Shown: positions 1,418-20,551 of the stretch, in pieces
Position numbering within the stretch: position 1 is the first letter of the stretch
Layout: each line of letters begins with the position of its first letter
Source of the DNA: Agathobacter sp.
GTDB taxonomy: Bacteria; Bacillota; Clostridia; Lachnospirales; Lachnospiraceae
Reading direction: 5' to 3'
Assembly: GCA_045544235.1 (NCBI GenBank)
Contig: JAZPYQ010000001.1
Span: forward strand, 1-24,000
Length of the DNA stretch: 24,000 bases
Program-made: the position numbers and the translations under genes
Notes under the pieces: model-generated
What the model saw: only the letters and a program-made list of their open reading frames with translations
Told to the model about the DNA's origin: nothing
Databases searched by the model: none

Positions 1418-1446
1418 TTGACTTTTGTTAAGTTGTGGATTATAGT
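1418..1446 (+). promoter_or_regulatory. sigma-A-type promoter of the fic-hsd operon
   Basis: TTGACT (1418..1423), a 17-nt spacer, then TATAGT (1441..1446). This is 58 nt upstream of the Fic ATG. Confidence 0.6.
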
Positions 1447-1453
1447 TTAATTA

Positions 1454-1475
1454 GGTCATTATATTTAATATGACC
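1454..1475. promoter_or_regulatory. second GTCAT/ATGAC inverted repeat at the predicted transcription start (candidate operator)
   Basis: GGTCAT-N10-ATGACC lies immediately downstream of the -10. It shares the GTCAT...ATGAC core with the repeat at 1385..1410. Confidence 0.35.
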
Positions 1476-1503
1476 AAGTTGAAAATTAAATGAGGTAATT
1501 GAA

Positions 1504-2565
1504 ATGAGAGAATTTGATTACGGAAAAAAATGGAAAAAATTACTAACACCAGAAATTGTTGGTTATCTTACAACAATTCATGAATATAAAGGAGAGCAGC
1601 GCTTAATAGCAGAGCGCCATGCGGATGTATTAGAAAGTCTTGTTGAAGTAGCAAAGATTCAAAGTACAGAGAGTTCTAATAAAATTGAGGGTATTTATAC
1701 ATCTGATGAGCGATTGAAGAAGATCGTTTTGGATAAGACAATGCCAAGGACAAGAAACGAGAGAGAAATTGCGGGATATAGAGATGTGTTAAATACAGTG
1801 CATGAGAATTTCAATCATATTCCGATTCGTGATACTTTCATATTACAACTTCACAGAGATTTGTATAAATTTGAAAATGCTACTGATGGTGGAAAGTTCA
1901 AAAACGTTGATAATGTGATAGAGGAAGAAGATGCAAAAGGTAATAAATTTGTTAGATTCAAACCGTTGCCAGCATGGGAAACACCAGAGGCAATAATGAA
2001 TCTATGTGCTGCATATAATGAGGCTATTAATAGAAGTGAGGCAGATCCGTTACTGATTATACCGATGTTCATAATAGATTTTCTGTGTATTCATCCGTTT
2101 AAGGATGGTAATGGGAGAATGAGCAGATTATTGACCTTGTTATTGCTCTATCAAAATGGCTACATTGTAGGAAAATATATCAGTTTGGAAAAATTGATAG
2201 AGCGTACAAAGGATAATTACTATGATGCTTTGCAGGAGAGTTCTCAAGGTTGGATGGAAGACAAAAACGATTATGAATCATTTGTTAAATATATTCTTGG
2301 GATTATTACAGCAGCATATAGAGAGTTCTTTGATAGAGTGCAGATTGTTGAGGAAAAGAAAGTGTCTAAGCCTGATAGAATTGAGGAATTAATCAAGAAT
2401 CATTTAGGTACTATTACTAAGTCTGAAATTGTTGAAGCAACACCGGGAATTAGTACCACAACAGTTCAGAGAACATTAACTGATTTGGTAAAAGCCGAGA
2501 AGATAATCAAGATTGGAAATGGACGCTATACAAAATATAAATGGAACTGGGATAAGGAGAATTAG
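1504..2565 (+). CDS. Fic/DOC-family protein (Fic_N + Fic + C-terminal winged HTH; SoFic-like, class II auto-inhibited AMPylase type)
   Basis: Catalytic motif HPFKDGNGRMSR matches HxFx(D/E)GNGRxxR. The N-terminal inhibitory motif SNKIEG matches (S/T)xxxE(G/N). The C-terminal ITKSEIVEATPGISTTTVQRTLTDLVKAEKIIKIGNGRYTKY is wHTH-like. A GAGGT ribosome-binding site lies 8 nt upstream. Confidence 0.9.
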   Translation: MREFDYGKKWKKLLTPEIVGYLTTIHEYKGEQRLIAERHADVLESLVEVAKIQSTESSNKIEGIYTSDERLKKIVLDKTMPRTRNEREIAGYRDVLNTVHENFNHIPIRDTFILQLHRDLYKFENATDGGKFKNVDNVIEEEDAKGNKFVRFKPLPAWETPEAIMNLCAAYNEAINRSEADPLLIIPMFIIDFLCIHPFKDGNGRMSRLLTLLLLYQNGYIVGKYISLEKLIERTKDNYYDALQESSQGWMEDKNDYESFVKYILGIITAAYREFFDRVQIVEEKKVSKPDRIEELIKNHLGTITKSEIVEATPGISTTTVQRTLTDLVKAEKIIKIGNGRYTKYKWNWDKEN

Positions 2566-2568
2566 AAA

Positions 2569-4065
2569 ATGATTACAGGTGACTTAAAAAATAAAATTGA
2601 TAGTTTGTGGGATATCTTTTATACAGGTGGCCTTACAAATCCGTTGGATGTTATTGAGCAAATGACTTATCTTATGTTTATTCATGATTTAGATGTATCA
2701 GATAATATACATGCGAAAGAAAGTGCAATGCTGGGACTTCCTTATGAAAGTGTTTTTTCAAAGGAAGTAAAAATCGGAGAAAGAGTTATTGATGGTACAC
2801 AGCTTAAGTGGTCTGTATTTAGAGATTACCCTGCAGACAGAATGTATTCAGTGGTTCAGGAAATGGTATTTCCATTTATAAAGAATTTGCATGCAAATAA
2901 GGACAGTGCTTTTTCCAAGTATATGGATGATGCAATTTTTAAACTTCCAACACCACTTATGCTTTCAAAGGTTGTTGATGCAATGGATGAGATTTATGCG
3001 CAAATCGCAAAATTGAGTGATTCTGACGGCAAAGGCGATGTATATGAATACTTGCTTTCAAAAATTTCAACAGCCGGAGTAAATGGTCAGTTTAGAACAC
3101 CACGTCACATTATTAAAATGATGGTAGAACTTATGGACCCTAAAGCTGATGATGTAATCTGCGATCCTAGCTGTGGTACAGCGGGATTTCTTGTAGAGGC
3201 CGGAGAGTACTTGTGGAACAACAAGAAAGAAGAGATTTTTTATGACAAGAAGAAAAAAGAACATTTTATGAATCACATGTTCCATGGTTTTGATATGGAC
3301 AGAACGATGCTTCGTATTGGCGCTATGAATATGATGAATCATAGAGTGGAGAGCCCGTTTATCGAATACAGAGATAGTTTATCTGACCAGAATCCAGATA
3401 AGGATAAGTACTCATTAATTCTTGCAAATCCACCTTTTAAGGGAAGTTTGGATGCTGATATTGTATCTGCGGATTTGCTTAAAGTATGCAACACAAAGAA
3501 GACGGAGCTTCTTTTCCTTGCGTTATTTGTTCGTATGCTTAAAGTTGGTGGACGCTGTGCTTGTATCGTTCCGGATGGAGTATTGTTTGGTTCGTCTAAA
3601 GCACATAAGGATATTCGAAAAGAATTAATTGAAAATCAGAGATTGGAAGCAGTTATTTCCATGCCTTCAGGTGTGTTCAAGCCATATGCAGGAGTTTCTA
3701 CGGGAATTCTTATCTTTACAAAGACAAATTATGGTGGAACAGATAATGTATGGTTCTACGATATGCAGGCCGATGGATACAGTTTGGATGATAAACGTTC
3801 AGCTGTAACGGAAAATGATATTCCTGATATCATTGAACGATTCCGTAATCGTGATGCAGAGATAGATAGAAAGAGAACAGATAAGTCATTTATGGTGGCT
3901 AAGCAGGAAATTGTAGATAATGATTATGATTTATCTATTAACAAGTATAAGAAGGTTGAGTATGTTGCAGTAGAGTATCCACCTACATCTGAGATTATAG
4001 ATAGAATCATGGAATTGGATGCAGAAGCTACAGAGGCAATAAAAGAGTTGAAGAAAATGTTATAG
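2569..4065 (+). CDS. hsdM: Type I restriction-modification N6-adenine DNA methyltransferase subunit M
   Basis: 498 aa. AdoMet motif I is DPSCGTAGFL and catalytic motif IV is NPPF (ILANPPFKG). The N-terminal region is HsdM_N-like. The start is 3 nt after the Fic stop, with an AAGGAGA ribosome-binding site. Confidence 0.93.
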   Translation: MITGDLKNKIDSLWDIFYTGGLTNPLDVIEQMTYLMFIHDLDVSDNIHAKESAMLGLPYESVFSKEVKIGERVIDGTQLKWSVFRDYPADRMYSVVQEMVFPFIKNLHANKDSAFSKYMDDAIFKLPTPLMLSKVVDAMDEIYAQIAKLSDSDGKGDVYEYLLSKISTAGVNGQFRTPRHIIKMMVELMDPKADDVICDPSCGTAGFLVEAGEYLWNNKKEEIFYDKKKKEHFMNHMFHGFDMDRTMLRIGAMNMMNHRVESPFIEYRDSLSDQNPDKDKYSLILANPPFKGSLDADIVSADLLKVCNTKKTELLFLALFVRMLKVGGRCACIVPDGVLFGSSKAHKDIRKELIENQRLEAVISMPSGVFKPYAGVSTGILIFTKTNYGGTDNVWFYDMQADGYSLDDKRSAVTENDIPDIIERFRNRDAEIDRKRTDKSFMVAKQEIVDNDYDLSINKYKKVEYVAVEYPPTSEIIDRIMELDAEATEAIKELKKML

Positions 4066-4077
4066 GGGGACTAATCC

Positions 4078-4824
4078 ATGAAAGGTATAGATTTAGTAAA
4101 CCATCCAAATTTCGCAGGGAGAAAAGAGGATCTCGATCCAAACCAACCTGGACTGTTGAAGATTACAAAGAAACATGAAGAAAAGAAGAAAACGGGTAAT
4201 GCTTTTGAAAAATATGTGTCATCACAGATTAGGAATGCTTTTACAGATGCAATTTTATTGGATGATGTCTATTTTGAGACTGGAGTATATAACACAAAAT
4301 TGTGTATGTATGAATCTATGCAGATAGATCATATTTTGATTACCTCAAAAGGTGTTTTGGTTTTGGAGGATAAATATATTGATGATGAAAAATATTTAAG
4401 TGTATCAGGTGGAGCGTTATCTAAAACTTGGTTACTCAAAAAGCGATTTGGAAGTATATCTGAGACTAATGGTTTAAAGCAGAATTATCGACATATGCAA
4501 TTTATCAAGGAAATACTAAATTATATTGGATTAGATATACCTGTTCTTCAAATGACTGTAATTGGTGGAATTGTTCGTGATAAAATAAGAGTGCAACAAT
4601 TTATCGATGCAAATCTAGTTACTGAAGAGGAGGCTATTGATCGAATAGTATATTTATTGAAAAGGCAAGCTAACATGGATGTTTCAACACAGAAGGTATT
4701 GGAAGAATTAAGTAAGTGGATTTGCACGGTACCGGATATTGAGAAATCACATATTGCGTTTGTTCGAAACAAGGAAAAGAATAGATTGCCTGCACGATGT
4801 AAAAAGGTAATGAGAAAATTGTAG
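4078..4824 (+). CDS. NERD (nuclease-related domain) protein embedded between hsdM and hsdS
   Basis: 248 aa. The NERD-like layout is GNAFEKYVSSQI ... QIDHILITSKGVLVLEDKY, i.e. D...E-x-K PD-(D/E)xK-like residues. There is a 12-nt gap after hsdM and a GGGGGA ribosome-binding site. Confidence 0.75.
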   Translation: MKGIDLVNHPNFAGRKEDLDPNQPGLLKITKKHEEKKKTGNAFEKYVSSQIRNAFTDAILLDDVYFETGVYNTKLCMYESMQIDHILITSKGVLVLEDKYIDDEKYLSVSGGALSKTWLLKKRFGSISETNGLKQNYRHMQFIKEILNYIGLDIPVLQMTVIGGIVRDKIRVQQFIDANLVTEEEAIDRIVYLLKRQANMDVSTQKVLEELSKWICTVPDIEKSHIAFVRNKEKNRLPARCKKVMRKL

Positions 4825-4867
4825 AAAGGAATAATAAATCAAATTCGGATTTGTAGGGATGATATAA

Positions 4868-6043
4868 ATGCAAAAAACATTTGATGAAGTTGTGATATTT
4901 GCAAGAACAGGATTAAATCCAAGACAAAATTTTAAGCTTGGACAAGGAAATAATGCATACATAACTATAAAAAATATTAAAAATAATAAGCTTGTTATAG
5001 ATGATAATACAGATGTTGTAGATGATGATGCAATCAGGTTAATTCATAGGCGTTCTCAGATTAAAAAAGGAGATATTCTATTCGCATCTATAGGTAGAAT
5101 GGGAGATATGTTTATTATTGAAGATGAGCCTGATGGGTGGGATATTAATGAATCTGTTTTTGCTTTCACACTAGATACGAATATAATCAGACAAAAATAC
5201 TTTTATTACATTTTTAAAGTAAAATCTACTTTGGATTATTTGTCATCAAATAGTTCAGGAAGTACTTTTAAAAGTATCAAGATGAATCAGCTAAAAAAAA
5301 TGGTGTTTGATATACCGTCTTTAGAGGTTCAAGACCAGATTATAAGAGGATTGGATAAAGTAAGTAATATCATTGAATTAAGAAAAATGGAATTGCAAAA
5401 TCTAGACAATCTCATCAAAGCCCGATTTGTCGAACTGTTTGGTAGTATGGAAAGTAAAATTCCTATTAGTGAAATGTGTAATGTTACTGGGGGATATTCA
5501 TTCAAGAGTGGTGACATTTCTGACGATGGCGCAATAAAGATTTTGCAGATAGGAAATGTGTATTTAGACAATGTGAGTTGGGAAACAACCAATTATTTGC
5601 CTGAAGGATTTGACGAAAAATATTCCAAATTTATGTTAGATGAAGGCGATATTGTTGTCGCTCTAACCCGTCCAATAATCCAATCATTAGGAAATGTAAA
5701 GGCTTGTATTGTTAAATCAAGTGATTTGCCTTGCCTTTTAAATCAACGAGTTGGTAGAATTGTTGCGAAAAAAGAAAAATCAGTTTTTCTTGAGTTTATT
5801 TATGGTTGCTTAATGACAGATGATTTTACAAGATATGTTGAGTCTTGCAGTATTGGATGTTCGCAACCTAATATAAGCACAAAAGATATTGAGAACTATT
5901 TAATTCCAAATGCTACATACGAAGAACAAAAGGCATATGTGGAATTTAAGAAACAGACCGACAAATCAAAATTTGCGGTACAGAAATCACTTGAAGAAGC
6001 ACAACTTTTGTTTAATAGCTTAATGCAGAAATATTTTGGATAG
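4868..6043 (+). CDS. hsdS: Type I restriction-modification specificity subunit S (two target-recognition domains)
   Basis: 391 aa with two TRD-like halves. They are separated by a conserved central helix (LQNLDNLIKARFVELFG), and the protein ends in the matching C-terminal helix (EEAQLLFNSLMQKYFG). Confidence 0.9.
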   Translation: MQKTFDEVVIFARTGLNPRQNFKLGQGNNAYITIKNIKNNKLVIDDNTDVVDDDAIRLIHRRSQIKKGDILFASIGRMGDMFIIEDEPDGWDINESVFAFTLDTNIIRQKYFYYIFKVKSTLDYLSSNSSGSTFKSIKMNQLKKMVFDIPSLEVQDQIIRGLDKVSNIIELRKMELQNLDNLIKARFVELFGSMESKIPISEMCNVTGGYSFKSGDISDDGAIKILQIGNVYLDNVSWETTNYLPEGFDEKYSKFMLDEGDIVVALTRPIIQSLGNVKACIVKSSDLPCLLNQRVGRIVAKKEKSVFLEFIYGCLMTDDFTRYVESCSIGCSQPNISTKDIENYLIPNATYEEQKAYVEFKKQTDKSKFAVQKSLEEAQLLFNSLMQKYFG

Positions 6044-6056
6044 GAGGGAGTAAACA

Positions 6057-6581
6057 ATGAGCTTGTCTGTAGATAATTTGGCTGAAAAAGCATTTGATAA
6101 TTTTAAGAAGATAACACCTGCACTGGTAGCAATTGCTTTATTGACAGGTATGCTCTTATTTCTTCCGGACAGCATATTGAGAAAGATGTATTTAGACAAT
6201 CTTCCAGTGCTTTGGAGCAGGATTATTGGGATTGCATTTTTGTTGAGTGTGGCTCTGATAGGAACTATTGGAGTTTCGTCTGCTATTTCATACATAACCT
6301 CGAAAAGGCGCAATAAGAGAATACGAGAAAATTTGAAGAAAAAGTTAAAGATACTAAGTCCACAACAAAGAAGTATTATTTTGAAGGTATTAAGGAGTAA
6401 AGAAAAATCAATTTCATTAGACAAGAACTCTGGTGATACAGTATATCTTGTGAATAATATGTTCTTGTATATGCCACAACAAGTATTAACACTAGGATGG
6501 GACAATGAAATGATTTTAACATATGTTCCCCACCCTTGGTTATTAGATTTGTATAACGAAGAACCTGAGTTGTTTATATGA
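6057..6581 (+). CDS. small 2-TM membrane protein, tentatively SieB-like (superinfection exclusion)
   Basis: 174 aa. Two hydrophobic helices (ITPALVAIALLTGMLLFLP and IIGIAFLLSVALIGTIGVSSAISYI) are followed by a basic stretch (KRRNKRIRENLKKKLK) and a soluble tail (LSPQQRSIILKVL...). There is a GGAGGGA ribosome-binding site. The stop overlaps an ATG of the hsdR frame (ATGA at 6578..6581). The SieB resemblance is from memory and was not searched. Confidence 0.7.
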   Translation: MSLSVDNLAEKAFDNFKKITPALVAIALLTGMLLFLPDSILRKMYLDNLPVLWSRIIGIAFLLSVALIGTIGVSSAISYITSKRRNKRIRENLKKKLKILSPQQRSIILKVLRSKEKSISLDKNSGDTVYLVNNMFLYMPQQVLTLGWDNEMILTYVPHPWLLDLYNEEPELFI

Positions 6582-6595
6582 GAAATGAGGGTATT

Positions 6596-9500
6596 ATGAC
6601 AAATTTTGATTATCTAAAGAAAGAGCCAAAATTTAATAGTTTTTCAGATGTAGCAATAGCCGCGGAGAAGATTCTTAAGATTGATATGGAATCTAGTGTG
6701 ATTAACTGCCGTCGTGCAATGGAGTTCGCAATAAAATGGATGTACTCTGTGGACAAGTCGTTAGAGATGCCATATCAGGATAATTTGATAAGTCTTATGA
6801 GTACAGAAGCGTTTCATGATCTTGTAGATGATGCTTTGTGGAAACGTCTTGATTTAATTCGTAAGATTGGTAACCGAGCTGCACATAACGGAAGAAAGAT
6901 AACAGAGGATGAAGCTATTTTATGCTTACAGAATTTGTTTATCTTTATGGATTATGTGTCATATTGCTATTCTGATTATTACGAAGAACGACAATATGAT
7001 GTGAGCTTATTGACTGAGACTCATAAGGAAACTACTGCAGTAAAATCTTCAGATGATGATGTGAATTTGCAAGCGTTAATTGCAGAGAATAAAGCCCTTA
7101 AAGAAGAACTTACAGCAAAACGTGCAGAACAGCAGCAGACATATGTTCCAAAGCCCCTTGATTTATCAGAGTATAAGACAAGAAAAATCTACATTGATGC
7201 TATGCTTTTAGATGCTGGCTGGACAGAAGGAAAAGATTGGATTAACGAGGTCGAACTTCCGGGTATGCCTAATAAATCAGAAGTGGGATTTGCAGATTAT
7301 GTTCTTTATGACGATAGTCATAGACCACTTGCTGTTGTAGAAGCAAAGAGAACTTGTGTAGATGTTGCCAAAGGAAGACAGCAGGCGAAACTATATGCTG
7401 ATTTGCTTGAAGCACAGTATAAGAGAAGACCGGTAGTATTTCTTACTAACGGTTTTGAAACAAGAATTATTGATAACCAGTATCCGGAGAGAAAGGTTGC
7501 TGTTATTTACTCTAAAAGAGATTTAGAGAAGCTTTTTAATCTTCAGACAATGAAGACAAGTCTTAACCATATCTCTGTAGATAAGGAAATTGCAGGTCGT
7601 TATTATCAGGAAGGTGCTATCAAGGCTGTATGTGATGCGTTTGATAATCGCAATCGTAGAAAGGCACTTCTTGTTATGGCTACCGGTTCCGGAAAAACAA
7701 GAACTGTTATAGCATTATGCAAAGTTCTTTTAGATGCAGGATGGGTTAAGAATATATTGTTCCTTGCGGATCGTAATTCGTTAGTTACACAGGCAAAAAG
7801 AAATTTTGTGAATCTTTTGCCTGATTTGTCATGTTCGAATCTTGTGGAAGAAAAAGATAATTATACTGCACATTGTATTTTTTCTACATATCAGACCATG
7901 ATGAACTGTATCGATTCTGTTAAGGATGACAATGGTAAGCTATTTACTTGTGGTCATTTTGACCTTGTTATCTGTGATGAAGCACATAGATCAATTTATA
8001 ACAAATATAGAGATATATTTAATTATTTTGACGCTCCGCTAGTGGGGCTTACGGCAACGCCTAAGGATGAGATTGATAAGAATACTTATGGAATATTTGA
8101 TTTAGAAAATGGTGTGCCTACTTATGGATATGAGTTAGCGCAAGCTGTAAAGGATGGTTATCTTGTAGACTTTACTACGGTTGAAACAAAACTGAAATTC
8201 ATAGAAGAAGGTATTGCTTACGACGAGTTGTCAGAAGAAGATAAGGCAGCTTATGAAGAAACTTTTGAATTTGAAGATGGAGAATTGCCAGAGAGAATAA
8301 ATTCGTCCGCTTTAAATACATGGATTTTTAATGAGGATACAATTAAACAAGTTCTTCATGTCTTTATGCGGGATGGTCTTAAGGTGGACTATGGGCAGAA
8401 AATAGGTAAGACGATTATCTTTGCCAAGAATCATGACCATGCAGAGAAGATTTTGGAGATATTTAATAAGCAGTATCCAGAATTGAGTAAAAATGGACAG
8501 CCGTTTGCAAAGGTTATAGATAACTATATGACATATGCACAGAGTGCAATTGATGAATTTTCTGATCCAAAGAAAATGCCTCAGATTGCGATTTCGGTTG
8601 ACATGCTTGATACGGGTATTGATGTACCGGAAGTGTTGAATCTTGTGTTTTTTAAGAAGGTTATGAGCAAAGCTAAGTTCTGGCAGATGATTGGTCGTGG
8701 TACCAGACTTTGTCCAGGTCTTATGGATGGAGAAGATAAAGGAAAATTCTATATTTTTGATTTCTGTGGTAACTTCGAATTTTTCCGTATGAATCAAGGA
8801 AGACCTACGGCTAATATGATTGCTCTTCAGGGAGCTATTTTCTCTCTCAAATTCGAAATAGCATATAAGCTTCAGAGTATTGAGTATCAGATTGACAGAC
8901 TTATTGCATACAGAAAGAAGCTTGTTGAAATGATGTCCGGCAAGGTGCAGGAGTTGAATCGTGAAAACTTTGCAGTAAGGCAACATCTTAAGTATGTAGA
9001 CACTTATTCTGTCGAGGCGAATTATCAATCGATTACCTTTGAAGATACTTTGATGGTTCGAGAAGAATTAGCACCGCTTATTATGCCTGATGGGGATGAA
9101 GCAAGCGCGGTTCGTTTTGATGCTTTGATGTATGGAATGGAATTGATATTTTTAGCGGGAAAAGGATATGGTAGACACAGAAGTGACCTTTTTAAAAAGG
9201 TGGAAGGAATTTCCAGTGTTGCCAATATTCCTGAAATACAGATGCAGTCAGAACTTATTAATAAGATTTTGCATACAGACTATGTAGATAATGCCGGAAT
9301 TGATGAGTTCGAGCATATCAGAGTAAGTCTGCGTAATCTGATGAAGTACCTTCCAAAAGGTATCATCAAGTACGATACAGATTTCACAGATGAGATTTTG
9401 TCTACAGAGTGGAATGATTCTGAACTTGAAAATGATGAATTAAAGAACTATAAGGCAAAGGCTGAGTTCTATATTCGTCAGCATCAAAATAATATTGCAA

Positions 9501-9901
9501 TTGCTAAACTTAAGACCAATCAGCCATTGACGGAGACAGATGTTAAAACTCTGGAACAGATTCTTTGGAAGGAAGTTGGGTCTAAAGATGATTATGAAAA
9601 GGAATACGGTCATAAACCATTGGGAGAGTTCGTTCGAGAGATTGTGGGACTGGATATGAATGCTGCAAAAGAAGCTTTCTCAGAGTTCCTTAATGATACA
9701 AATCTTGATAGTAGACAGATTTACTTTGTGAATCAGATTGTTGAGTATATTGTACACAATGGTATGATGAAGGATTTATCAGTGTTACAAGAATCACCAT
9801 TTATTGATAAGGGTAGTGTGGTAGAGATATTCACTGACTTGACAGTATGGATGGGAATCAGGAAGGTTATTGATAGGATTAATGCAAATGCGGCAGCGTA
9901 G
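6596..9901 (+). CDS. hsdR: Type I restriction endonuclease subunit R (DUF4145-like N-terminus, PD-(D/E)xK nuclease, SF2 DEAH motor, EcoEI_R_C-like tail)
   Basis: The nuclease motif is FADYVLY...VVEAKR. The helicase motifs are MATGSGKTRT (I), VICDEAHRS (II), LTATP (III) and QMIGRGTR (VI). I prefer the ATG at 6596 (MTNFDYL..., GAGGG ribosome-binding site 6 nt upstream) over the track start at 6578. Confidence 0.93.
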   Translation: MTNFDYLKKEPKFNSFSDVAIAAEKILKIDMESSVINCRRAMEFAIKWMYSVDKSLEMPYQDNLISLMSTEAFHDLVDDALWKRLDLIRKIGNRAAHNGRKITEDEAILCLQNLFIFMDYVSYCYSDYYEERQYDVSLLTETHKETTAVKSSDDDVNLQALIAENKALKEELTAKRAEQQQTYVPKPLDLSEYKTRKIYIDAMLLDAGWTEGKDWINEVELPGMPNKSEVGFADYVLYDDSHRPLAVVEAKRTCVDVAKGRQQAKLYADLLEAQYKRRPVVFLTNGFETRIIDNQYPERKVAVIYSKRDLEKLFNLQTMKTSLNHISVDKEIAGRYYQEGAIKAVCDAFDNRNRRKALLVMATGSGKTRTVIALCKVLLDAGWVKNILFLADRNSLVTQAKRNFVNLLPDLSCSNLVEEKDNYTAHCIFSTYQTMMNCIDSVKDDNGKLFTCGHFDLVICDEAHRSIYNKYRDIFNYFDAPLVGLTATPKDEIDKNTYGIFDLENGVPTYGYELAQAVKDGYLVDFTTVETKLKFIEEGIAYDELSEEDKAAYEETFEFEDGELPERINSSALNTWIFNEDTIKQVLHVFMRDGLKVDYGQKIGKTIIFAKNHDHAEKILEIFNKQYPELSKNGQPFAKVIDNYMTYAQSAIDEFSDPKKMPQIAISVDMLDTGIDVPEVLNLVFFKKVMSKAKFWQMIGRGTRLCPGLMDGEDKGKFYIFDFCGNFEFFRMNQGRPTANMIALQGAIFSLKFEIAYKLQSIEYQIDRLIAYRKKLVEMMSGKVQELNRENFAVRQHLKYVDTYSVEANYQSITFEDTLMVREELAPLIMPDGDEASAVRFDALMYGMELIFLAGKGYGRHRSDLFKKVEGISSVANIPEIQMQSELINKILHTDYVDNAGIDEFEHIRVSLRNLMKYLPKGIIKYDTDFTDEILSTEWNDSELENDELKNYKAKAEFYIRQHQNNIAIAKLKTNQPLTETDVKTLEQILWKEVGSKDDYEKEYGHKPLGEFVREIVGLDMNAAKEAFSEFLNDTNLDSRQIYFVNQIVEYIVHNGMMKDLSVLQESPFIDKGSVVEIFTDLTVWMGIRKVIDRINANAAA

Positions 9902-9957: not shown

Positions 9958-10034
9958 TACTGTGCTATTTTTGGGGATTCTTCTAGGTAGGAATAATCAA
10001 TGTTGTCTAATTGATACAGCAAATGGCACAGTAG
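9957..10034. repeat. imperfect inverted repeat built from the 12-mer motif, with nested small hairpins
   Basis: TACTGTGCTATTT (9958..9970) pairs with AAATGGCACAGTA (10021..10033) with 1 mismatch. Inner hairpins are GATTCTTC/GAATAATC and TCAAT/ATTGA. Confidence 0.6.
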
Positions 10035-10078: not shown

Positions 10079-10112
10079 AAAGGAGAATATAGAAAAATGA
10101 AATTAGGTATCG
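10079..10112 (+). repeat. right copy of the direct repeat (true 5' end of ychF; candidate attR)
   Basis: 10089..10112 is identical to 1094..1117. It contains the functional ribosome-binding site and ATG of ychF. Confidence 0.8.
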
Positions 10113-11197
10113 TAGGCCTACCAAACGTAGGAAAAAGTACATTATTCAACGCATTAACAAAAGCAGGAGCAGAATCAGCAAACTATCCATTCTGTACCAT
10201 CGATCCAAACGTAGGAATCGTTCCAGTACCAGACCATAGATTAACACTTCTTGGCGATTTATATAAGACAAAGAAAGTAACTCCAGCGATTATCGAATTC
10301 GTAGACATCGCAGGTCTTGTAAAAGGTGCTAGTAAGGGTGAAGGTCTTGGAAACCAGTTCCTTGCAAATATCCGTGAAGTAGACGCAATCGTACATGTAG
10401 TAAGATGTTTTGAGAACTCGAACATTGTTCATGTTGACGGAAGCATCAATCCAGTACGTGATATTGAGACAATCAATCTTGAACTTATCTTCTCAGACTT
10501 AGAAATCTTAGAGCGTCGTATTGCTAAGGTTGCAAAACAGGCTCGCATGGATAAAACTCTTGCAAAAGAAATGGAACTTCTTGAAGCAATCAAGGCTCAT
10601 TTAGAAGACAGCAAGATGGCTCGTACATTTGAAGTGCCAGACGATGAAGATATGCAGGCTTGGTTTGCTGGATACAATCTTCTTACAGCAAAATCTACTA
10701 TCTACGCAGCGAACGTAGAAGAAGATGATCTTGCAGATGATGGTGCAAGCAATGCAAATGTAGAAGCTGTTCGTAAACTTGCAGCAGAAGAAAATAGTGA
10801 AGTTTTTGTTATCTGTGCACAGATTGAACAGGAAATTGCTGAATTAGATGATGATGAAAAGGCAATGTTCTTAGAAGACCTTGGATTAAAAGAATCTGGT
10901 CTTGAAAAACTCATCAAAGCAAGCTATAGCTTACTCGGTCTTATCAGTTACTTAACAGCTGGTGAAGATGAATGTAGAGCTTGGACTATTAAGAAAGGTA
11001 CAAAGGCTCCACAGGCAGCAGGTAAAATCCATAGCGACTTTGAACGTGGATTTATCCGTGCAGAAGTAGTAAACTACAAAGACCTTCTTGAATTAGGTAG
11101 CCTTTCCGCTGCAAAAGCAAAAGGTGTAGTTGGTACAGAAGGTAAAGAATACGTTGTTAAAGATGGCGACGTTATGTTGTTTTTATTCAATGTATAA
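10097..11197 (+). CDS. ychF: ribosome-binding ATPase YchF (Obg-family GTPase-like)
   Basis: MKLGIVGLPNVGKSTLFNALT contains the P-loop. A DIAGLV motif is present, and the C-terminal TGS-like end is KEYVVKDGDVMLFLFNV. I chose the ATG at 10097 (AGGAG ribosome-binding site) over the track's upstream TTG at 10076. Confidence 0.95.
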   Translation: MKLGIVGLPNVGKSTLFNALTKAGAESANYPFCTIDPNVGIVPVPDHRLTLLGDLYKTKKVTPAIIEFVDIAGLVKGASKGEGLGNQFLANIREVDAIVHVVRCFENSNIVHVDGSINPVRDIETINLELIFSDLEILERRIAKVAKQARMDKTLAKEMELLEAIKAHLEDSKMARTFEVPDDEDMQAWFAGYNLLTAKSTIYAANVEEDDLADDGASNANVEAVRKLAAEENSEVFVICAQIEQEIAELDDDEKAMFLEDLGLKESGLEKLIKASYSLLGLISYLTAGEDECRAWTIKKGTKAPQAAGKIHSDFERGFIRAEVVNYKDLLELGSLSAAKAKGVVGTEGKEYVVKDGDVMLFLFNV

Positions 11198-20373: not shown

Positions 20374-20447
20374 TAGCGAGAGGGGGATTCGAACCCTCGA
20401 CACTACGGGTATGAACCGTATGCTCTAGCCAACTGAGCTATCTCGCC
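20374..20447 (-). tRNA. tRNA-Met (anticodon CAT), elongator-like; tRNA-Ile2 (lysidine) cannot be excluded by eye
   Basis: The reverse complement is GGCGAGATAGCTCAGTTGGCTAGAGCATACGGTTCATACCCGTAGTGTCGAGGGTTCGAATCCCCCTCTCGCTA. It folds as a cloverleaf with anticodon loop TTCATAC and T-loop TTCGAAT. CCA is not encoded. The T-stem has one A-C mismatch. Confidence 0.85.
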
Positions 20448-20478: not shown

Positions 20479-20551
20479 TGGGACCAACAGGGCTCGAACC
20501 TGTGACCCCCTGCTTGTAAGGCAGGTGCTCTCCCAGCTGAGCTATGATCCC
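20479..20551 (-). tRNA. tRNA-Val (anticodon TAC)
   Basis: The reverse complement is GGGATCATAGCTCAGCTGGGAGAGCACCTGCCTTACAAGCAGGGGGTCACAGGTTCGAGCCCTGTTGGTCCCA. The anticodon loop is CTTACAA. CCA is not encoded. Confidence 0.92.

Follow-up and report, generated by a model that had tools for sequence, protein, structure and literature searches.

How three genes that encode no restriction-modification (R-M) subunit are to be understood within a Type I R-M operon, as parts of one composite defence system or as independent genes that travel with it, is the question raised by a locus of Agathobacter sp. (GenBank assembly GCA_045544235.1, contig JAZPYQ010000001.1, positions 1 to 24,000; this 24,000-nt stretch is referred to below as the window). 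Six open reading frames (ORFs) on the + strand, at 1504-2565, 2569-4065, 4078-4824, 4868-6043, 6057-6581 and 6578-9901, encode in this order a Fic protein, HsdM, a NERD-family nuclease, HsdS, a small membrane protein of the SieB family and HsdR. The initial annotation had described a Type I R-M operon with embedded defence-like genes of non-R-M type, and this description is supported by domain assignments and by related loci. Its further proposal of a single composite three-passenger system was not supported: no retrieved locus joins the NERD and SieB genes, alternative cargo is found in both of the positions that they occupy, and both genes are also found outside R-M loci. On balance we lean to the view that the locus is an R-M scaffold carrying exchangeable defence cargo, the cargo being probably autonomous, co-expressed and co-transferred, and that it is not a fixed six-gene system.

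Approximately 50 related loci were collected by exact-protein look-ups, a species-level genome scan, a metagenome scan and a viral scan, and were uniformly annotated. The genome and metagenome scans were seeded with narrow SieB alignments, a 36-sequence alignment being too variable. A four-gene backbone, Fic-HsdM-HsdS-HsdR, is common to many of these relatives, and the gaps between hsdM and hsdS and between hsdS and hsdR are cargo slots, the contents of which vary. Elsewhere the hsdM-hsdS slot contains an Mrr_cat nuclease (L022 and L028), a STAND-like ATPase (L025) or a Bro-N protein with or without DUF3800 (L017 and L019), or it is empty. The hsdS-hsdR slot contains a GmrSD_N-HNH protein in L021 and L030, and this region is occupied in other loci by DUF3990/DUF3791, DUF6414-like, EEP-like and other proteins. 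NERD and SieB occur together in no other retrieved locus. The initial annotation had called for a survey of the order hsdM-NERD-hsdS-membrane protein-hsdR; this order was not found in the other retrieved loci, and a fixed six-gene system was rejected, as the six-gene order is likewise present in none of them.

The nearest relative, L051, encodes Fic, HsdM and SieB proteins with 96%, 98% and 93% identity to those of the window and is without NERD. About 68 nt of its sequence (3521-3612) have ~85% identity to window positions 4800-4870, that is, to the last NERD codons and the NERD-hsdS spacer. As judged from this alignment, the residue is the scar of a NERD deletion, and it therefore implies that NERD loss was recent and tolerated. 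The NERD-bearing loci L005, L048 and L042 are in turn without SieB; in L048 and L005, HsdR has 95% identity to that of the window. Both HsdM and HsdR are intact in the locus without NERD (L051) and in those without SieB (L005, L048, L042). The identities are also mosaic along single loci, such as L001 (SieB 72% versus HsdR 93%) and L005 (Fic 64% versus HsdM 93%).

The ratio of nonsynonymous to synonymous substitution (dN/dS) is 0.02-0.03 for HsdR, 0.03-0.05 for HsdM, 0.04-0.08 for Fic, 0.08-0.26 for NERD and 0.09-0.23 for SieB, values that are rough: the synonymous distances of the more distant pairs approach or exceed saturation, and some ratios are not computable. By this estimate all six genes are under purifying selection. 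Insertion of the passengers by a transposon or insertion sequence was ruled out, as neither transposase genes nor terminal repeats are present around the individual genes. Random insertion of the passengers was the outcome that the initial annotation had set against its own reading. It was not seen: the lack of transposase and the reuse of the same slots across many relatives indicate that the passengers are not random insertions.

The R-M genes form a complete Type I operon of the EcoAI/EcoEI-like type. HsdM (2569-4065, + strand), a Type I N6-adenine methyltransferase, matches N6_Mtase (1.3e-63) and HsdM_N in Pfam and MTase_I in PADLOC (3.3e-182), and its NPPF motif at residue 287 is intact. 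HsdS (4868-6043, + strand), the specificity subunit with two target-recognition domains, has two Methylase_S matches in Pfam and full-length Specificity_I matches in PADLOC. HsdR (6596-9901, + strand; alternative ATG at 6578) is composed of an N-terminal DUF4145, ResIII, Helicase_C and EcoEI_R_C, matches PADLOC REase_I (7e-157) and retains the GSGKT, DEAH and D..EAK motifs. Since HsdR reaches 264 bits against the NCBIfam EcoAI equivalog, below the cut-off of 550, the subtype is given only as IB-like. As read from its sequence, the operon is probably active. Many relatives have a tyrosine recombinase together with a second hsdS or a fragment of it in the operon (L001 7536-8504, L005 5612-6580, L017 10761-11729, L048 11367-12335), which looks like a phase-variable specificity shufflon. 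Neither tyrosine recombinase nor second hsdS is present in the operon of the window.

The six ORFs are separated by 3, 12, 43 and 13 nt, and then by a 4-nt ATGA overlap or a 14-nt gap, depending on the start of hsdR. ATG 6578 overlaps the sieB stop codon and has no Shine-Dalgarno sequence. ATG 6596 (MTNFDYL...) is preceded by GAGGG, and the N-terminus that it gives agrees with those of homologues; for both reasons it is probably the start, leaving the 14-nt gap. Shine-Dalgarno-like motifs are situated ahead of the other five starts. No terminator-like site was found in the intergenic gaps, the three 5-bp stems that were detected all lying within hsdM or hsdR, and the GC content of the six genes, overall and at third codon positions, resembles that of the rest of the window. 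Upstream, a terminator-like hairpin with a 14-bp stem (1321-1352, + strand) would insulate the operon from upstream transcription. It is followed by a sigma-70-type promoter, TTGACT-17-TATAGT (1418-1446, + strand), which is the best + strand match of the region (10/12) and the position of which is kept in relatives; promoter-like matches overall are not above chance (32 found versus 41.7 expected). From this arrangement we infer that the six genes are co-transcribed from one promoter. The same-strand order behind one promoter given in the initial annotation was thus confirmed by the ORF coordinates, the gaps, the promoter match and the lack of an intergenic terminator. A Shine-Dalgarno sequence for each ORF, also stated there, was found for five starts, and for hsdR at ATG 6596 alone. 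Pfam searches agreed with its naming of Fic, HsdM, NERD, HsdS and HsdR, and additionally identified its two-transmembrane (TM) protein as SieB.

The first gene, fic (1504-2565, + strand), encodes a SoFic-like class II Fic protein according to Pfam, PADLOC and NCBIfam searches and its motifs. It matches the PADLOC SoFic model over nearly its full length (3.6e-43) and scores 61.4 bits against the NCBIfam SoFic equivalog NF046030, far from the cut-off of 550. The catalytic motif HPFKDGNGRMSR, of the HxFx(D/E)GNGRxxR type, is situated at residue 197, and the N-terminal class II inhibitory motif, SNKIEG, is intact; in the 15 loci compared, both are retained without exception. The C-terminal winged helix gives weak, sub-threshold matches to DIP2311-like_C and AbiEi_4. 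In all IB-like loci of this R-M lineage for which the 5' end was recovered, fic is the first gene.

Two operator-like palindromes flank the promoter. The first, AGTCAT-N10-ATGACT (1387-1408), stops 9 nt short of the -35 hexamer, and the second, GGTCAT-N10-ATGACC (1454-1475), is situated just past the -10 hexamer, around the position at which transcription is expected to begin. Identity across relatives is 75-91% over the 135 nt that precede fic; two palindromes of the same 6-N10-6 geometry are kept there, and both arms change together from locus to locus. The half-site class follows the recognition helix of the Fic winged helix in three classes: TTVQRTL pairs with (A/C)GTCAT, RITVERxL with (G/A)CATCA, and Q(I/V)T(I/V)QRAL with (T/G)TATCA. 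Because of this co-variation, Fic is probably the autoregulator of the operon, acting on the two palindromes through its C-terminal winged helix, besides being an autoinhibited AMPylase.

The NERD gene (4078-4824, + strand) is the cargo of the hsdM-hsdS slot and encodes a probable PD-(D/E)xK nuclease. Its product matches Pfam PF08378 with 48.6 bits (cut-off 22.1), and the D...(D/E)xK core, D84..E97-x-K99, is invariant in 24 homologues. The structure model is confident (pLDDT 92), and its PDB matches, although weak (E >= 0.007), are all PD-(D/E)xK nucleases: R2 endonuclease, Can2, McrC and Hjc. No PADLOC v2 model, PDC candidate models included, matches the protein; PHROGs gave no match, a PDB sequence search nothing meaningful and an IMG/VR scan nothing. 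Only 28 NERD homologues were found. At four distinct loci the gene occupies the hsdM-hsdS slot: in the window, in L005-8, in L048 and, at only 50% identity, in L042-44. Outside R-M loci it was found in two contexts, behind a 700-aa HATPase_c_3 protein (L009-12) and in a defence island (L045), where GmrSD_N, AAA_15/21 and MC6/MC7 genes lie beside it. In the former context (L009 7801-10756, and likewise L010-L012), a NERD protein of ~50% identity follows the HATPase_c_3 protein, which has a weak, sub-threshold HSDR_N_2 match, and the pair may represent a two-gene defence candidate.

The sieB-like gene (6057-6581, + strand) encodes two N-terminal hydrophobic TM helices, a basic stretch and a cytoplasmic soluble domain of ~90 residues, the best PDB matches of which, themselves weak, are MarR/RTP winged helices. 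The protein matches Pfam SieB (PF14163) with 1.6e-16 and 60.7 bits (cut-off 26); SieB of phage P22 scores 101.4 bits against the same model. A profile of the SieB clade aligns with P22 SieB in hhalign with a probability of 59% (E = 9e-5), at only ~17% identity between the window protein and P22 SieB. The structure model (pLDDT 92) has P22 SieB as its top match among the viral models of BFVD, with a probability of 1.0 but with E = 0.014 and a TM-score of 0.41. No PADLOC v2 model matches, PDC candidates included; tblastn against 50,697 phage genomes gave no match, and PHROGs a single weak match of unknown function. The family is small: clustered at 50% identity, it accounts for 278 clusters within 1.84 billion representatives.

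Members of the SieB clade are also found outside R-M loci. A solitary gene (54% identity) lies between metX and metW in a metagenome-assembled genome of Neisseriaceae (L026 3741-5082), next to a 195-aa TM/zinc-ribbon-like protein and two small ORFs that were read by eye as a HEPN-like/nucleotidyltransferase toxin-antitoxin pair. Another (L055 8001-8531; 43% identity, Pfam SieB 1.1e-19) is a moron on a siphophage contig of IMG/VR, flanked on one side by tail genes (Sipho_tail, Prophage_tail) and on the other by the gene of a GH18 protein, and links the R-M-embedded SieB clade to phages. More distant members of the family are solitary on plasmids of Carnobacterium and Bacillus cereus. Truncated sieB copies lie directly upstream of intact hsdR in gut-metagenome loci (L035 4386-4589, L036 6008-6211, L037/L038 10147-10365, L039 909-986); what is left is either the last ~67-72 codons or the initial 26, and other cargo appears to have displaced the gene. 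In loci without SieB, proteins of 185 aa and 92 aa encoded ahead of hsdR were checked, and neither is a divergent SieB. In some contexts, a GmrSD_N-HNH gene or the recombinase with hsdS' shufflon follows sieB. A protein of 104-112 aa with one TM helix and a coiled coil often abuts the sieB start on the upstream side (L017 9686-10000, L021 9686-10000, L025 9662-10000); the window has no such gene upstream of sieB. In P22 (L041 29349-30336), sieB adjoins ral, a restriction-alleviation gene that acts on Type I systems, and in the lambda record (L040) ral is annotated and no sieB is. The adjacency in P22 may be a coincidence that echoes the linkage of SieB to Type I loci.

In the mechanism that we favour, one promoter would drive all six genes, and the C-terminal winged helix of Fic would bind the two flanking palindromes and control this promoter, like the C-proteins of R-M systems. 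Restriction would be the first layer of defence. Fic would provide a further layer as an autoinhibited AMPylase, as in SoFic; the SieB-like protein another, by bringing about abortive infection at the membrane as in P22; and NERD another, as a DNA nuclease, possibly in the role of the Mrr/GmrSD-type genes in the slots of relatives. The embedded layers would gain co-expression and co-transfer and would not depend on contact with the R-M complex. The autonomy of the cargo is indicated by the SieB-clade and NERD genes that occur without R-M neighbours.

Several observations weigh against such a loose association. The loci were sampled through NERD or SieB queries and are hence not a frequency sample of the R-M lineage. 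After dereplication, ~20 of 22 contexts have the SieB-clade gene behind hsdS and ahead of hsdR, with members that span 42-94% identity; one of these contexts is L027, an unrelated Type I family (SieB 44% identity, 682-aa HsdM, 1068-aa HsdR, no Fic), and the spacing of sieB to hsdS and hsdR is tight everywhere, at 1-33 nt. This regularity exceeds what pure hitch-hiking would predict, and a functional coupling could be behind it. The position is that of prrC, which lies between hsdS (prrB) and hsdR (prrD). As for the proposed role of Fic, the co-variation of operator and recognition helix is a correlation over three classes and is confounded by phylogeny.

A rival reading, put forward in the initial annotation, is a guard mechanism like that of PrrC, in which the SieB-like protein, NERD or both would be kept latent on HsdM2S or HsdR2M2S and freed to act as abortive-infection effectors when an anti-restriction protein of a phage, such as Ocr, ArdA or a Stp-like protein, disables the enzyme. 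For PrrC, the gene of which lies inside a Type IC locus, a guardian role is documented; masking by the R-M complex and activation by Stp have been demonstrated. The recurrence of the hsdS-sieB-hsdR position in two unrelated Type I families, with short intergenic gaps, keeps this model alive for SieB, and NERD is still found in the hsdM-hsdS slot at 50% identity (L042). On the other side, SieB and NERD each occur without an R-M neighbour, and R-M loci survive the loss of either; an intact hsdR can follow no more than a remnant of sieB (L035-L039), the identity of SieB does not vary in step with that of HsdR, P22 SieB acts from a prophage without an R-M partner, and the ABC-ATPase regulatory domain of PrrC is absent from both proteins. 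Because of this independence in both directions, the remnants and the mosaicism, a guard mechanism is the less likely reading, and we regard it as unlikely while taking it more seriously than the other alternatives. A bolder form of the idea is also unlikely, and slightly more so: the SieB clade would be a guardian of at least two unrelated Type I families, analogous to PrrC and mechanistically unrelated to it, latent as long as the restriction complex is intact and triggering membrane abortive infection on anti-restriction, and the Fic-winged-helix protein would be an R-M controller that couples transcription to an AMPylase toxin.

A different reading concerns NERD, which might be a stand-alone Type IV-like restriction nuclease directed against modified or non-self DNA, complementing the Type I enzyme, and not an abortive-infection effector. 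The other cargo in the slots of relatives is suggestive, namely the Mrr_cat nuclease at the same place (L022, L028) and GmrSD_N-HNH in the hsdS-hsdR slot (L021, L030), and TgvAB of V. cholerae offers a precedent; the invariant D-ExK core and the confident model, whose weak matches are all PD-(D/E)xK nucleases including McrC, also agree with it. Those fold matches are weak (E >= 0.007), however, the Pfam search detected no domain for reading modified bases, such as SRA, EVE or DUF262, and the NERD protein of HEC-02 works with an ABC ATPase partner, of which there is none here. We consider this reading doubtful, and less credible than the guard mechanism in either form.

The constant position of sieB just before hsdR in two Type I families, and the two TM helices joined to a cytoplasmic domain with weak MarR/RTP-type winged-helix matches, would also fit a protein accessory to the R-M enzyme, which as a tether or regulator could place or restrain HsdR at the inner membrane where foreign DNA enters. 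The prototype of the family is a phage abortive-infection protein, however, clade members are found as a solitary gene and within the tail module of a prophage, and closely related HsdR proteins (95% identity) are encoded in loci without SieB, all of which makes this role very improbable. The weakest reading takes the embedded genes for selfish hitch-hikers, or for decaying remnants that no longer serve any function, and can be nearly dismissed: it draws on the cargo turnover, deletion scars and truncated sieB copies of relatives, but in the window all three passengers are full length with catalytic or family motifs intact, each has a Shine-Dalgarno sequence, and their dN/dS values are 0.04-0.26.

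The scaffold reading places the locus among known arrangements. Campylobacter rlo genes are embedded in Type I operons, and the literature mentions in passing that Fic/DOC genes occur between hsd genes. TgvAB is embedded in a Type I operon of VPI-2 in Vibrio cholerae (PMC11411939). A systematic guilt-by-embedding screen identified 17,432 genes embedded in this way, and PADLOC includes its PDC candidates as models (Payne et al., 2024, bioRxiv 10.1101/2024.01.29.577857). The loci of that screen (Type I R-M, BREX, DISARM and Hma) resemble the present one in that same-strand non-R-M genes are nested within them, the cargo is of defence type and varies by locus, and the cargo can act independently. 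They differ in that here NERD and the SieB-like protein are matched by none of the PADLOC v2 models, three slots are occupied together, and Fic is a constant leader and putative regulator, not variable cargo. HEC-02 (ABC ATPase and NERD; Payne et al., 2024) likewise includes an embedded NERD nuclease with a conserved (D/E)xK, but its host is Hma and not Type I R-M; in the window operon there is no ATPase gene, and the NERD protein has no PADLOC match.

PrrC of EcoprrI shares with the window an accessory gene inside a Type I locus. It consists of an ABC-ATPase and an anticodon nuclease, in contrast to the three passengers of the window, which have no such domains, and prrC is reported to be always linked to an R-M locus (PMC3458546), unlike the SieB-like and NERD genes. 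Among the phage SieB proteins (P22 and lambda; PF14163), that of P22 shares with the window protein the Pfam match and the order of N-terminal TM helices followed by a soluble domain; P22 SieB halts macromolecular synthesis mid-cycle. The window gene is chromosomal within an R-M operon, however, and not prophage-expressed, and it gives no sign of an Esc-like internal product. With SoFic (Millman et al., 2022; Sofic/AS1, PMC12249575), the window Fic shares the Fic motif, the N-terminal inhibitory helix motif and a C-terminal domain, but it leads an hsd operon, is far below the equivalog cut-off and is proposed to bind DNA. Unlike Sofic/AS1, it has no small downstream AS1-like gene; hsdM begins 3 nt past the fic stop.

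That Type I operons can have defence genes embedded in them is already known; the recurrent partnerships with Fic and SieB-like proteins are not yet described. The literature, as far as it was covered, yielded no description of Type I loci with an embedded SieB-family gene, of an hsdM-hsdS slot occupied by a solo NERD gene or of an R-M controller of the Fic type. SieB/PF14163 is also absent from the portion of the supplements of Payne et al. (2024) that was covered, a negative on which the PADLOC search carries more weight. Looking for genes embedded in Type I R-M operons is a proven way of finding new immune genes, and the locus adds two cargo families that PADLOC v2 lacks, a NERD nuclease that stands alone and a clade of the SieB family. 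It offers as leads a chromosomal, R-M-embedded relative of the poorly understood phage SieB at the position of PrrC, a Fic protein fixed as the first gene of an R-M lineage and probably its transcriptional controller, and a near-isogenic series of loci with differing slots that suits a test of the independence of embedded genes from R-M. If the ordinary reading alone is true, the locus is one further example of a known pattern.

The operon is contained in an hsd island of ~9 kb amid housekeeping genes (ychF, a PRC-barrel gene, nrdR, a HAD hydrolase gene, rpiB and downstream genes). A 29-nt direct repeat bounds the island. Its left copy (1089-1117, + strand) comprises the ychF ribosome-binding site, start codon and first codons and is a dead 8-codon stub, and its right copy (10084-10112, + strand) contains the start of the intact ychF (10097-11197); the copies are identical at 27 of 29 positions, with an exact core of 24/24. 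Related islands lie at the same site upstream of ychF in L001, L003, L004, L042 and L043, and those of other relatives elsewhere in the genome. The left-side duplicate of the ychF 5' end is also present in L042 (1563-1596) and L043 and not in L001, L003 or L004. This arrangement suggests that the island was integrated at the 5' end of ychF, by a site-specific or illegitimate event; the island of the window contains no integrase.

Near the left end of the island, the 12-mer AAATGGCACAGT is present in two tandem copies (1245-1268). Near the right end (9959-9970, - strand; 10021-10032) there are one exact copy and one inverted copy with one mismatch, and no exact copy was found elsewhere in the 24 kb. 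The 12-mer could be a candidate recombination or regulator site. Two tRNA genes identified with Rfam on the - strand (20374-20447 and 20479-20551) are unrelated to the operon.

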